Virus genome (UHGV): UHGV-1135478
From: a virus
Direction: 5' to 3' (one strand)
Length of the DNA stretch: 22,302 bases
The number at the start of each line of letters is the position of its first letter. The first letter of the stretch is position 1. A program made the translations under genes and the position numbers. Below are positions 9,169 through 12,905 of this stretch, piece after piece. Below the pieces are notes generated by a model, which saw nothing but the letters and a program-made list of their open reading frames with translations, had not been told where the DNA came from and ran no database searches.

Positions 9169-10335
9169 ATGGCAGTAGGTGAAATTCAAATTAGTGCCTT
9201 GCCTCAAGCAGCCTTACCAATTGACCTTAGTGATATCTTCCATCTTAAGCAGGGTATTGAGGATAAGAGATGTACTCTTGAGCAATTACTTGCTCCACAC
9301 TCAAGCCTAAGAAATAACCCTCACGGTGTTACTAAAACACAAATTGGTTTAGATAATGTTATCAATGCTCTTCAGTTAGTTGCTGCAAATAACTTATCAG
9401 ATGTTGCTAATGTCACTGAGGCAAGAGCAAATCTACAGATTATGTCTTCAGAAGAGGTTAATAGCCTTGTTCAACAGCATATTAATGATAAAAGTAACCC
9501 ACACAATACAACTAAGGCACAGGTTGGTTTGAGCAATGTCCAGAACTGGGTGACATCTAACCTTTATAATGAGGATGCAGATAAGTATGCTACAGCAAGA
9601 GCAGTAAATAACTTGTACAAGGCTGTTCAGGCTTCTTATCCAGTAGGTACTATCCATCTCTCTATGAATCCTGCAAACCCTTCTACATATTTAATTTGTG
9701 GAGGTACTTGGGAGTTAGTTTCAAGAGGAAGAGCACTTGTAGGTTATGATAGTGATTCTAGGCCAGTTGGTAGTAACTTTGGCTCAAGTAGTGTTAGCTT
9801 ATCTAGTAACAACCTACCATCACATAGCCATTCAATCTACCTAACTGGTGGTGGACACACTCATGGTGCTGCTATTACTATTGATGGCTTTGATTACGGC
9901 AATAAGAGCACAAACAGTTTCGATTATGGAACAAAGACCACTAATAGCACTGGTGCTCACACCCACTCAGTGAGTGGTTCAACAAATACCACAGGTAATC
10001 ACACACATACTGTAGGTGGTCGTTATGGTGGTGACTCTATCGGTGGTAAACATCGTGTTCAGGTCTCAGGGACTGAACAGGTTTCCAGTGTAGCTGGTGA
10101 CCACTCACACGCTATTAGCGGTTCAACAAATACCACAGGTAATCACCAACACACTGTTGCAATTGGTGCTCATACCCATACTGTTGCAATTGGTGCTCAT
10201 ACCCATAAAGGCACAGTAACTTTGCAGTCATCTGAGCATACTCACTCAGGTACTACAGGTACTACAGGTGCTGGTCAAGCATTTAGCATTGAACAACCAT
10301 CCTTTGTGGTTTATGTATGGCAAAGAACCGCTTAA
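9169..10335 (+). CDS. Tail fibre protein (tail-collar-like domain + His-x-His repeat C-terminus)
   Basis: 388 aa. N-terminal repeated motif NPHxxTKxQxGLxNV (twice). Collar-like segment …CGGTWELVSRGRALVG…LSSNNLPSHSHS…. C-terminus rich in HTH/HSH/HQH motifs (GAHTHSVSGSTNTTGNHTHTVGG…). RBS AGGAG. Confidence 0.8.
   Translation: MAVGEIQISALPQAALPIDLSDIFHLKQGIEDKRCTLEQLLAPHSSLRNNPHGVTKTQIGLDNVINALQLVAANNLSDVANVTEARANLQIMSSEEVNSLVQQHINDKSNPHNTTKAQVGLSNVQNWVTSNLYNEDADKYATARAVNNLYKAVQASYPVGTIHLSMNPANPSTYLICGGTWELVSRGRALVGYDSDSRPVGSNFGSSSVSLSSNNLPSHSHSIYLTGGGHTHGAAITIDGFDYGNKSTNSFDYGTKTTNSTGAHTHSVSGSTNTTGNHTHTVGGRYGGDSIGGKHRVQVSGTEQVSSVAGDHSHAISGSTNTTGNHQHTVAIGAHTHTVAIGAHTHKGTVTLQSSEHTHSGTTGTTGAGQAFSIEQPSFVVYVWQRTA
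9916..10089 (+). repeat. Direct repeat copy 1 (shared tail-fibre C-terminal module)
   Basis: Roughly 80% nt identity by eye to 12546-12719; identical runs ACTGGTGCTCACACCCACTCAGTGAGTGGTTC (9949-9980 = 12579-12610) and TATGGTGGTGACTCTATCGGTGGTAAAC. Confidence 0.8.
10153..10206 (+). repeat. Perfect in-frame tandem duplication, 2 x 27 nt (encodes TVAIGAHTH twice)
   Basis: ACTGTTGCAATTGGTGCTCATACCCAT occurs twice back-to-back with no mismatch (10153-10179 and 10180-10206). Confidence 0.85.
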
Positions 10336-10385: not shown

Positions 10386-12905
10386 ATGGCAGATTACAAA
10401 TTGAGTGAATTAAACTCAATCGATACAATCCGTTCAGACGACCTTCTTCATGTCAGGGTTAAAAAGAGACCTGAAATGCTGGGTGATGAAGACCGTCGAA
10501 TGACCTATCAAGACTTCTTAGCATCTTTTAAGCTTGAAAGATTTGTTCAGATTGCTGGTAGTACTATGACTGGTGACTTAGGGATTGTTAAGTTACTTTA
10601 TGGTGGTAAGGCAGTCTTTGACCCTACAGGCTCTTCTGAGATTACTATGGGGGATATTTTAAAGACTTTTAAAATTAACGCAAATGGTCTTAAATTAACT
10701 ATTGCAGATGCTTCAAGGTCAGCAACTGTTTATCATACTCTGAATAAGCCAAGTCCTAATGAGCTTGGTATGAGAACTAATGAAGAGAATGACGCAAGAT
10801 ATGCAAGACTTGCTGTTACAAACACATTCTCTGGGACTCAGAACATTCAAGGTGATGTTAACTTACTTCGCCTTAGAAACCAAAATGCAAATAATGCACA
10901 ATATATTGAAGGTGTAGACCTAGATGGCTCGGCTAGATGGTTGGTTGGTATTAGCAAAAATGGTTCTGATGCAGTGCAGTTGTACAATAACAAATATGAC
11001 TCAGCTTTGACTATTGCAAGCAATATCTCTGTGAATAAGTCTCTAGCAATCACTGGTCAAGTACAACCTTCTGACTTCTCTAACTTAGATGCTAGATACT
11101 TTACTCAGACAGCAGCTAATCAGAGATTTGCACAGTTAGCTGTTAATAACACTTTTACAGGTGCTAATACTTTCACTAACCTTGTTGTTAAGAAGAATGC
11201 TAATGCTATTACTTTGCAGAATACTGATGCAGGTACAGCACTTTATATTCTTGGTAAGAAGTCTGATGGAACAAATAAATGGTATGTTGGTACAGATTCT
11301 GATGAGACACGTCTGAATATTTATAACTACATTACAGGTTCACAGGTTTCACTAGGTACTACTGTTGGTATTAATAAAACCTTGCAAATCAATGGTCAAG
11401 TTCAACCATCTGATTGGACTAACATTGACTCTAGATATATTCCGGCAGCAACATTAAGTACAATTGCAAGAACTAATACTCTCAATACATTTTCTGTACG
11501 ACAAGTTATCAACTCTGATGGTGAAGCTCTTGCGTTAAAAGCAAAAACTGAAACGACATTGTTCATTAGGGGGTGGGCTGCTGATGGGACAGCTAAGTGG
11601 TATGTTGGTAATGGTGATGCCGATAACAATAATAACTTAAGGCTGTTTAACTACAAAACAGGTAAAGTGCTTACCATTGGCTCAACATTCGAAATGAATG
11701 CAACTTTAGCAATCACTGGGCAGGTTCAACCTTCAGATTGGTCTAACATTGATGCGAGATACTACAACAAATCATCTGCTGATAACAGATATCTGAGAGT
11801 AAGAAGCACAGATTTCAATACTAGTGGTGCTGGTAAATGGGCTAAGATTGCAACTGTGAATATGCCACAAGGCGCATCAACAGCAGTGATTGAACTGTTT
11901 GGTGGGGCTGGATTTAACTTTGGCCTAATTGACCAAGCCTGTAAGACAGAAATTGTTCTTAGGACAGGGGATGGTAACCCAAAAGGCTTAAATGTTGTTG
12001 CATGGAAAAACTCACCGAATAGTGTTGTAAGTAGAATTGGGTATGTTAATACCTCTGGTGATAACTATGACATTTATTGCGCAGTTGGTAACTATCTAGC
12101 CGCTACAACAGCTAGGGTTCAGTCAACATCTAATGCAACAGTACAACTGTTTGAGGCTCCAGAGACATCTGACAACGCTCCATCTGGCTATGTTGATGGG
12201 ACAATTGCTCACTATTACACTAGTCTCTTGAAGCCAACACCTTCAGATATTGGTGCATATACTAAATCAGAAACTGACCAGAAGATTGCACAGGCAATTA
12301 GTGACTCTACAGACCTTAATAAAATCTATCCAGTAGGTATTGTAACGTGGTTTAACAGTAATGTTAACCCTAATACCGCACTTCCTGGATTAACTTGGAC
12401 GTACCTGAACAATGGTGTAGGTAGGACAATCAGGGTTGCAGCAGCTAATGGTTCAGATGTTGCTACAACTGGAGGCTCAGATTCTGTTACGTTAGCAGTT
12501 GGAAACTTACCTTCACACACTCATAGTTTCTCTGCGACAACCTCTAGCTTTGACTACGGTACTAAAACCACTAACACTACTGGTGCTCACACCCACTCAG
12601 TGAGTGGTTCTACTAACAACACTGGTGCTCATACACATACAGTTGGTGGTCATTATGGTGGTGACTCTATCGGTGGTAAACCTCGTGTTCAGGTATTTGG
12701 TACAGAACAGGTATCTAGCTCTGCTGGTGCTCACGCTCACACTGTATCTGGTACTGCTGCCTCTAACGGAAACCATGCTCACACTGTTGGTATTGGTGCT
12801 CACAGTCATACAGTTAGTGGTAACACTGGTGGTACAGGTTCTGGTTCAGCATTTAGTGTAACTAACCAGTTCTATAAGCTGATGGCTTGGGTAAGAACTG
12901 CTTAA
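10386..12905 (+). CDS. Long tail fibre protein (internal domain repeats; collar-like + His-x-His C-terminus)
   Basis: 839 aa; RBS AGAGGA. Three to four ~110-aa internal repeats, each ending …GQVQPSD(F/W)(S/T)N(L/I)D(A/S)RY. C-terminal ~190 aa homologous to fibre 1 (…GNLPSHTHS…GAHTHSVSGSTNNTGAHTHTVGGHYGGDSIGGK…). Confidence 0.85.
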   Translation: MADYKLSELNSIDTIRSDDLLHVRVKKRPEMLGDEDRRMTYQDFLASFKLERFVQIAGSTMTGDLGIVKLLYGGKAVFDPTGSSEITMGDILKTFKINANGLKLTIADASRSATVYHTLNKPSPNELGMRTNEENDARYARLAVTNTFSGTQNIQGDVNLLRLRNQNANNAQYIEGVDLDGSARWLVGISKNGSDAVQLYNNKYDSALTIASNISVNKSLAITGQVQPSDFSNLDARYFTQTAANQRFAQLAVNNTFTGANTFTNLVVKKNANAITLQNTDAGTALYILGKKSDGTNKWYVGTDSDETRLNIYNYITGSQVSLGTTVGINKTLQINGQVQPSDWTNIDSRYIPAATLSTIARTNTLNTFSVRQVINSDGEALALKAKTETTLFIRGWAADGTAKWYVGNGDADNNNNLRLFNYKTGKVLTIGSTFEMNATLAITGQVQPSDWSNIDARYYNKSSADNRYLRVRSTDFNTSGAGKWAKIATVNMPQGASTAVIELFGGAGFNFGLIDQACKTEIVLRTGDGNPKGLNVVAWKNSPNSVVSRIGYVNTSGDNYDIYCAVGNYLAATTARVQSTSNATVQLFEAPETSDNAPSGYVDGTIAHYYTSLLKPTPSDIGAYTKSETDQKIAQAISDSTDLNKIYPVGIVTWFNSNVNPNTALPGLTWTYLNNGVGRTIRVAAANGSDVATTGGSDSVTLAVGNLPSHTHSFSATTSSFDYGTKTTNTTGAHTHSVSGSTNNTGAHTHTVGGHYGGDSIGGKPRVQVFGTEQVSSSAGAHAHTVSGTAASNGNHAHTVGIGAHSHTVSGNTGGTGSGSAFSVTNQFYKLMAWVRTA
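10773..11795 (+). repeat. Tandem ~330-nt intragenic domain repeats in the long fibre gene
   Basis: GQVQPSD motif recurs at codons 224, 337 and 445 (nt ~11055, ~11394, ~11718) with flanking KWYVG / LAVxNTF motifs; copies are diverged at nt level. Confidence 0.6.
12546..12719 (+). repeat. Direct repeat copy 2 (shared tail-fibre C-terminal module)
   Basis: Counterpart of 9916-10089; see that entry. Confidence 0.8.

Follow-up and report, generated by a model that had tools for sequence, protein, structure and literature searches.

Three tandem domains of the T7 gp17 pyramid type in the predicted shaft of a Felixounavirus long tail fibre

Cryo-EM studies of phages Bas63 and Sf14, published in 2025, describe a long tail fibre composed of a baseplate-binding domain, repeated beta domains with helix-turn linkers, and a gp37-like tip, the trimeric fibres being reported on the basis of AlphaFold trimers docked into cryo-EM density. 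The authors of the Bas63 study refer to the repeated units as 'beta-helix repeat domains', report a visual similarity to the T4 gp34 rod, and count five of them. In the Sf14 study, domains like the pyramid domain of T7 gp17 were noted in gp53. T7 gp17 itself has one pyramid copy, located directly before the tip domain.

The window that we analysed, a stretch of 22,302 nucleotides from the virus genome UHGV-1135478, carries the equivalent of Bas63 gp27, Sf14 gp53 and Mushroom gp058 (Table 1). The tail fibre genes of Salmonella phage SPT-1 and of Mushroom are 99.5% and 98.1% identical to the window gene at the nucleotide level, respectively, and the window fibre and the SPT-1 protein share 100% identity over their first 480 amino acids. 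The gene is syntenic with Mushroom FDH40_gp058, gene order matches that of Mushroom, L001 and L002, and, as in Ounavirinae, the long fibre gene sits downstream of the short fibre gene and upstream of a thymidylate synthase/DHFR block. Homology to the Ounavirinae long tail fibre group (the orthologues of Bas63 gp27 and Sf14 gp53) extends over the full length, and the position of the gene is conserved. The product of this open reading frame is a Felixounavirus long tail fibre, and the phage is Felix-O1-like. The short tail fibre has a C-terminal needle in common with the long fibre and is without pyramid repeats (no match to PF20744); in the Bas63 paper the repeats are described as the main difference between long and short fibres. 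Note that the window fibre belongs to a class of homologues of 839-840 amino acids that is less common than the class of about 780 amino acids, and that the two classes differ in the domain that follows the repeats, where the middle domain of the window fibre replaces the T7-tip-like PF12604 domain of the shorter class.

Table 1. Features of the long tail fibre gene and its neighbour (positions in the window; amino acids numbered within the long fibre).
Feature	Residues	Position	Strand	Basis or remark
Short tail fibre gene	388 aa	9169..10335	+	phrog_2097, PF21939
Long tail fibre gene	839 aa	10386..12905	+	phrog_4277 tail fibre E=0, aa 1-839
N-terminal region, baseplate-binding and first domain	1-129	10386..10772	+	no repeat copy
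Repeat unit 1, PF20744 pyramid-type	130-238	10773..11099	+	HMM domain 130-238, 173.9 bits
Junction 1, LAITGQVQPSDFSNLDARYFTQTAANQRFAQ	220-250	11043..11135	+	conserved linker with short helices (AF2)
Repeat unit 2	239-351	11100..11438	+	HMM domain 239-351, 173.2 bits
Junction 2, LQINGQVQPSDWTNIDSRYIPAATLSTIAR	333-362	11382..11471	+	
Repeat unit 3	352-459	11439..11762	+	HMM domain 355-459, 174.8 bits
Junction 3, LAITGQVQPSDWSNIDARYYNKSSADNRYL	441-470	11706..11795	+	
Middle beta-rich domain	471-610	11796..12215	+	phrog_21552, 3299, 22609, 11029, 6722; no repeat copy
C-terminal collar, HxH needle and tip (T4 gp37-like receptor-binding)		12216..12905	+	2XGF, PF03335, PF21939

The original prediction held that residues 130-470 (10773-11795) comprise three to four tandem repeats of about 110 amino acids. 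The motifs on which it drew, LAVxNTF, (K/R)W(Y/L)VG and L(A/Q)I(T/N)GQVQPSD(F/W)xN(I/L)DxRY, do recur, with spacings of 113 and 108 amino acids, and GQVQPSD is found at residues 224, 337 and 445 as claimed (nucleotides 11055, 11394 and 11718 of the window, in the reading frame 10386-12905). A comparison of the protein with itself by blastp returned the identity match alone, and self-similarity was instead assessed segment by segment with Smith-Waterman alignments against shuffled sequences. Scores between the three units were 185-204, compared with 30-33 +/- 5-7 for the shuffles, none of which (0/300) reached them; the periodicity is thus significant (z = 26-29), and the repeat HMM recovers three domains of about 174 bits each. 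It could be argued that chance, or the composition of a Gly/Asn/Thr-rich fibre sequence, produced the periodicity; in favour of this there is only the compositional bias that fibre proteins show in general. We give this explanation practically no credence in view of the z scores, the three HMM domains, the three Pfam stretches (E=4.9e-64) and the conservation of unit positions across more than 150 homologues; a compositional origin is refuted by the shuffle scores, the repeat HMM and the Pfam stretches.

The suggested fourth copy did not stand. A search of the protein with an HMM of the three copies, all filters off, found exactly three, and with hhalign neither the N-terminal 129 amino acids nor the 200 amino acids after the repeats matched a profile of 254 repeat units significantly (probability 0.2-8%). 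Smith-Waterman alignments, moreover, revealed no resemblance between the units and the remaining parts of the protein (z < 2.3). A looser form of the junction motif is present five times (aa 121, 227, 340, 448 and 616), and this is probably what suggested a fourth copy. At the DNA level, Tandem Repeats Finder detected no array across the repeats, and the copies were still recognisable in the 96-nt junction region alone (60-72% identity; repeat search, family D1), which argues that the duplication was not recent.

The units belong to a known domain family. PF20744 (gp37_trimer) matches the window protein in three stretches with 212.8 bits against a gathering cut-off of 21.7, the best stretch (aa 159-247) spanning profile positions 2-93 of 95, and the same family covers residues 371-464 of T7 gp17 (E=1.6e-40), the structurally defined type member (residues 371-447). 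A profile of the three repeats matched the T7 gp17 chains 4A0U, 4A0T and 7BOZ with E=7e-4 to 1.3e-3; a PDB match of this kind, made from three sequences (E about 1e-3), is marginal by itself. The HMM of 254 units matched T7 gp17 at residues 368-440 with E=2.7e-12. In an AF2 monomer model of aa 120-470 (pLDDT 76.5 overall, with cores around 90), each of units 1, 2 and 3 has five beta strands, and the linkers contain short helices. When this model was used as a Foldseek query, the top four PDB matches were 4A0U/4A0T with a probability of 1.00 and an rmsd of 1.9-2.6 A over 64-68 columns (the best being 1.9 A over 66 columns at 26% identity). Sequence profile and predicted fold therefore agree in identifying each unit as a PF20744 domain, that is, as a pyramid domain of the T7 gp17 type. 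Note that the Pfam name gp37_trimer is misleading, in that T4 gp37 is without the domain and the structural type is that of T7 gp17. (A search of the literature under PF20744 yielded no papers.) The window fibre differs from T7 gp17 in that three copies are arranged in tandem, in mid-fibre and in a myovirus, with conserved junctions of about 40 amino acids between them, and identity to T7 is only about 26%.

We considered whether the units are instead shaft repeats of the T4 gp34 type, i.e. mixed alpha-beta fibrous or triple beta-helix segments rather than T7 pyramid domains. Fig. 4F of the Bas63 paper sets the N-terminal region of the long fibre beside the gp34 rod (PDB 5NXH), the chains 4UXG, 5NXH and 5NXF are in the Foldseek top 13, and in the junctions a short helix is preceded by a P-S/T motif, as in the repeats of gp34 and gp12 (Granell et al.). 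However, these Foldseek matches to the gp34 rod, which extend over about 271 columns, are weak (E 0.09-0.2, probability 0.30-0.38) with an rmsd of about 17 A, and gp34 repeats are about 33-47 amino acids long and of a different sequence family (Granell et al. 2017), as opposed to about 110 amino acids here. Furthermore, PF20744 has no match in T4 gp34 or gp37, on both of which the repeat HMMs fail as well (best domain E 0.06-1; at least 0.6 for gp34), whereas T7 gp17 matches by Pfam, profile and fold. We therefore regard gp34-type repeats as an unlikely description of the units. The gp34 families PF21446 and PF21560 were not among the Pfam matches of the window protein, and homology of the repeats to T4 gp34 or gp37 was rejected at the sequence level by Pfam and the repeat HMMs. 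The likeness to the T4 long fibre lies elsewhere: both have a trimeric shaft made from duplicated modules and an HxH iron-needle tip, and fibres of both types are retracted along the sheath, but the T4 fibre consists of four proteins and the window fibre of a single chain.

Among relatives, the number of units is nearly constant. Three units were found at the same positions in all of the closest database homologues (120/120) and in all IMG/VR loci (29/29), and coverage of the three-unit stretch was 80% or more in 249 of 252 phage records; the Bas63 paper, from AlphaFold 3 models, comes to the same conclusion on repeat number for the genus. The idea that copy number may differ between relatives thus held only weakly, all sequenced relatives that were checked having three, and an exhaustive search of 1.84 billion representatives finding two syntenic, Ounavirinae-like metagenomic phages whose fibres of 1015 aa and 931 aa contain five and four units, respectively. 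The units within each of these arrays (contigs SRR22802239_169 and ERZ28599557 scaffold_93) are at most 65% identical to one another, which argues against a collapse or expansion artefact of assembly. Variation in copy number is therefore real but rare; these natural variants indicate that the shaft tolerates extension, and it is reasonable to suppose that copy number sets fibre length. Units at the same position are 57-69% identical across phages, compared with 36-44% for units at different positions, and within the window protein the units are 37-43% identical (units 2 and 3 being 37% and 43% identical to unit 1, respectively). This divergence, together with the grouping by position, marks the triplication as ancient, as judged from sequence.

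These findings support the original prediction of a long tail fibre whose shaft was formed by tandem duplication of a whole domain; the shaft lies between the N-terminal baseplate-binding part and a T4-gp37-like tip. Very probably, residues 130-459 of the homotrimeric Felixounavirus long fibre are three PF20744 modules that build the shaft in tandem and that trace back to an ancient triplication. [quoted passage not shown] Three such blocks, each presumably contributing trimeric packing, rigidity and length, would together form a stiff shaft that keeps the receptor-binding needle, which resembles that of T4 gp37, at a distance from the baseplate-binding domain at the N-terminus. The published count for Bas63 is five units, as opposed to the three homologous units of our sequence-based count; the N-terminal and middle domains probably account for the remaining two. 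The three-pyramid architecture has already been catalogued and published, so that the finding is correct but ordinary and leaves the current understanding of tail fibres unchanged. What is gained is annotation, in that a 'tail fibers protein' can be resolved precisely into a domain that binds the baseplate, three pyramid domains of the T7 type, a middle domain and a needle like that of gp37.

The shaft region is unevenly conserved. Pairwise identity among homologues is 0.45-0.66 in the cores, compared with 0.82-0.96 in the junctions and 0.95 in the N-terminus (mean of 56 homologues); identity in junction 1 is 0.89-0.96, compared with 0.49-0.66 in the neighbouring cores. Cores this unusually variable are not obviously required of a purely structural spacer. 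The ratio dN/dS is about 0.6 in the cores, 0.17-0.35 in the junctions and 0.09 in the N-terminus, values that are only indicative because saturation leaves 235-287 of 406 pairs unusable in the cores. Core dS is about 1.2 or saturated, compared with 0.5, which implies different histories. In two homologues (P0120 and P0098) the unit-3 core is 85-90% identical to the unit-1 cores of other phages, with the position-3 linker kept, and in the five-unit fibre, unit 4 shares 72% identity with Felixounavirus unit-1 cores. Between conserved junctions, the beta cores act as cassettes that can be exchanged; some phages have a unit-1 core at position 3. The junctions mark natural splice points, at which shaft units could be swapped or added in phage engineering.

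One reading of this pattern is that the units are more than spacers, the variable cores being functional surfaces, such as a secondary or lateral host-binding site or a site that touches the tail sheath when the fibre is retracted, that are diverse through selection and through cassette exchange at the junctions. The low identity and the higher dN/dS of the cores relative to the junctions would fit such a reading, as would the unit-1-like cores at other positions; in addition, host recognition or evasion of a defence system is given as a possible reason for variability by the Bas63 authors, who also see fibres touching the sheath D2 domains. However, dN/dS does not reach 1, and saturation affects many pairs, so that positive selection is not supported; a stable trimeric block whose solvent-exposed strands are under relaxed constraint would show the same pattern; and the binding surface is putative, receptor binding in this fibre type being attributed to the C-terminal tip. 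We consider functional surfaces of this kind possible, if on the improbable side.

Distal fibre genes of T-even phages recombine between conserved motifs. Short conserved motifs there flank variable, exchanged segments as they do in the window fibre, the exchange concerning adhesin tips in the T-even phages and paralogous positions of a tandem shaft array here. The cores might constitute a pool of interchangeable cassettes, with the junction motifs acting both as connectors and as recombination sites and with core diversity reflecting function beyond spacing, a proposal that we put forward as speculative and rather doubtful. Exchange in register would replace a core, as with the unit-1 core at position 3 in phage D1-2-like fibres, and exchange out of register would add units, giving rise to the four- and five-unit fibres of the two uncultured relatives; lateral host contact, sheath docking and evasion of defence systems would be candidate functions of the cores. 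If this were the case, composition and length of the shaft would be an evolvable host-range trait in Ounavirinae.

Outside the shaft, the baseplate-binding role given in Table 1 for the N-terminal region is taken from the Bas63 cryo-EM paper. The full-length AF2 monomer model was poor (pLDDT 50.5), and the middle domain is beta-rich in AF2 with pLDDT 55-76; a search with aa 460-640 found no PDB sequence relative for it. [quoted passage not shown]

The window represents the tail-baseplate module of a Felix-O1-like myovirus (Ounavirinae, Felixounavirus). Its 839-aa fibre ORF shares 99.5% DNA identity with the gene that encodes the "tail fibers protein" in Salmonella phage SPT-1, and 98.1% with the counterpart in phage Mushroom, whose order of surrounding genes the window also has. 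Following the naming in the Bas63 cryo-EM paper, the short tail fibre is the 388-aa product and the long tail fibre the 839-aa one. (Note that the tail assembly chaperone of Mushroom, upstream of the tape measure gene, is annotated as a CDS joined from two pieces, which implies a programmed frameshift; the layout at the start of the window matches it.)

Features of the window and of two metagenomic relatives
Feature	Location	Remarks
Tail and baseplate genes		Order in window: tail assembly chaperone, tape measure, hub, spike, wedge proteins, 388-aa fibre, 839-aa fibre
Layout like two-piece chaperone of Mushroom	510-908 and downstream to about 1150	
Short fibre gene	9169-10335	
Long fibre ORF	10386-12905 (+)	
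Repeat region	10773-11795	Long-fibre residues 130-470
Middle domain	11796-12215	aa 471-610
Needle repeats	12571-12827	Four copies of a ~42-nt unit
Thymidylate synthase and DHFR	After 839-aa fibre gene	Opposite strand
Five-unit long fibre	L001:10001-13048	Uncultured Ounavirinae-like phage, Logan SRR22802239
Four-unit long fibre	L002:9911-12706	Uncultured Ounavirinae-like phage, ENA ERZ28599557

The original prediction held that three to four diverged tandem domains, arising by duplication, form the shaft of the long fibre. GQVQPSD does lie at residues 224, 337 and 445; the remaining motifs on which the prediction drew also recur, at 113- and 108-residue spacing. Smith-Waterman scores between the three units (aa 130-238, 239-351 and 352-459; 37-43% identity) were 185-204, compared with about 30 ± 5-7 for shuffles (z = 26-29), and the remaining segments of the long fibre showed no resemblance to a unit. 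Moreover, an HMM built from the three copies and run with filters off found three domains, each scoring about 174 bits, and no further copy. When the 129 N-terminal residues and the 200 residues that follow the repeats were compared with a 254-unit profile by profile-profile alignment, neither gave a significant match. Thus, the count is three, and the possible fourth copy falls away. The impression of an extra copy probably arose because a looser junction motif, KP(S/T)P..(L/I)G..T..E.D.(R/K)(Y/I)A, occurs five times (aa 121, 227, 340, 448 and 616). Domain duplication as the origin of the repeats was correct; since DNA-level similarity among the copies is limited to the 96-nt junction (60-72% identity), and Tandem Repeats Finder detected no array in the repeat region, the duplication is old.

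Pfam assigns PF20744 ("gp37_trimer") to three stretches of the long fibre at 212.8 bits (cut-off 21.7). On the T7 fibre protein gp17 this family covers residues 371-464 (E=1.6e-40), the pyramid domain, whose structure is given by PDB 4A0T/4A0U; with the three window units alone as the profile, chains of these entries were matched at E=7e-4, and the 254-unit HMM matched gp17 368-440 at E=2.7e-12. Neither PF20744 nor the repeat HMMs matched T4 gp37 or gp34. Modelled as a monomer in AlphaFold2 (pLDDT 76.5, cores around 90), aa 120-470 are predicted to have five beta strands in each unit and short helices at the junctions. The four best PDB matches of this model by Foldseek were chains of T7 gp17, with 26% identity, probability 1.00 and an rmsd of 1.9 Å over 66 columns; T4 gp34 chains matched at E about 0.1 and rmsd about 17 Å. 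Pyramid-like domains of the T7 gp17 type were also noted independently, in the orthologous gp53, by the authors of the Sf14 paper. Note that PF12604 ("gp37_C") maps to gp17 residues 466-542; the Pfam names of both families are misleading, as both domains map to T7 gp17. The feature itself is already known: PF20744 is catalogued, the window protein is identical to a deposited one, and two structural papers of 2025 describe the fibre architecture. The variants with four and five units and the apparent cross-position core swaps described below are minor additions.

The window long fibre agrees with the published description, in which a baseplate-binding domain is followed by repeated beta domains joined by helix-turn linkers and by a gp37-like tip. 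Pfam found no PF20744 in the short fibre, and the Bas63 paper identifies the repeats as the main difference between the long fibre and the 430-Å short fibre. The three units probably form three successive trimeric pyramid blocks with helix-turn junctions between them, which jointly would act as a stiff shaft keeping the receptor-binding needle distant from the baseplate. How the trimer packs, how stiff it is and how much length each unit adds are inferences that go beyond the monomer predictions (the full-length monomer model was poor, at pLDDT 50.5). The published "five" domains are probably the three units plus two others, at the N-terminus and in the middle (aa 471-610), whose fold may or may not be that of the units. 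The long-fibre C-terminus matches PDB 2XGF (E=5e-13); its needle and collar (PF21939, PF03335) are common to both fibres, and the needle repeats encode (T/N)xGxHxHxV, an HxH motif. At 839-840 aa, the window long fibre belongs to a minority class, the majority being ~780 aa. Its middle domain is a beta-rich module unlike the PF12604 (T7 gp17 tip-like) domain of the ~780-aa class; matches to it come from several uncharacterised PHROG fibre families, and it had no sequence relative in the PDB.

Each of the 120 closest database homologues (779-840 aa) has three units, which begin at about aa 130, 239 and 355, and the length differences lie only downstream of the repeats. Three units were likewise present at 29 of 29 IMG/VR loci found by the conserved N-terminus, and of 252 phage records, drawn from Felixounavirus, Mooglevirus, Suspvirus and Shigella Sf phages, 249 covered at least 80% of the three-unit stretch in one place. 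AlphaFold 3 models of every Felixounavirus long fibre led the Bas63 authors to the same view. (Two records attributed to unrelated hosts, GU169904, Staphylococcus phage SA1, and MG065668, Campylobacter phage A126, also carry Felixounavirus long-fibre sequence at 66-88% identity; one is flagged UNVERIFIED_ORG, and both are probably contaminated or chimeric entries.) An exhaustive HMM search of 1.84 billion representatives recovered two proteins with more, of 1015 aa (five units) and 901 aa (four units), both counts confirmed by Pfam. The genes occupy the long-fibre position on syntenic contigs of 77 and 87 kb, whose baseplate proteins are 62-84% (five-unit phage) and 57-79% (four-unit phage) identical to those of the window; the four-unit gene call starts 30 codons too late, the real ORF being 931 aa with units from residue 131. 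Among the other representatives, more than 100, most of them of T7-gp17-like size, carry one unit and about 20 carry two. Variation in copy number is thus real in the wider family but rare in the Felix-O1-like lineage, and the suggestion that relatives may differ is only marginally right.

The Bas63 authors noted variability in the repeats and left its cause open. Across phages, units at the same position are 57-69% identical, compared with 36-44% for different positions, so the triplication is older than the phages compared. In homologues P0120 (Salmonella phage D1-2) and P0098, though, the unit-3 core shares 85-90% identity with the unit-1 core of other phages (homologues P0027, P0088 and P0059), despite retention of the position-3 linker. 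Unit 4 of the five-unit fibre shares 72% identity with unit-1 cores of Felixounavirus, and the identity between its units 3 and 5 is 65%. Pairwise identity is 0.82-0.96 in junctions and 0.45-0.66 in cores. Synonymous divergence is about 1.2 or saturated in cores compared with 0.5 in the N-terminus, and dN/dS about 0.6 compared with 0.09. The unit-1-like cores at other positions, together with conserved junctions and variable cores, suggest that cores have been swapped between conserved junctions, including across paralogous positions. Mosaicism of this kind is familiar in tail fibre genes generally.
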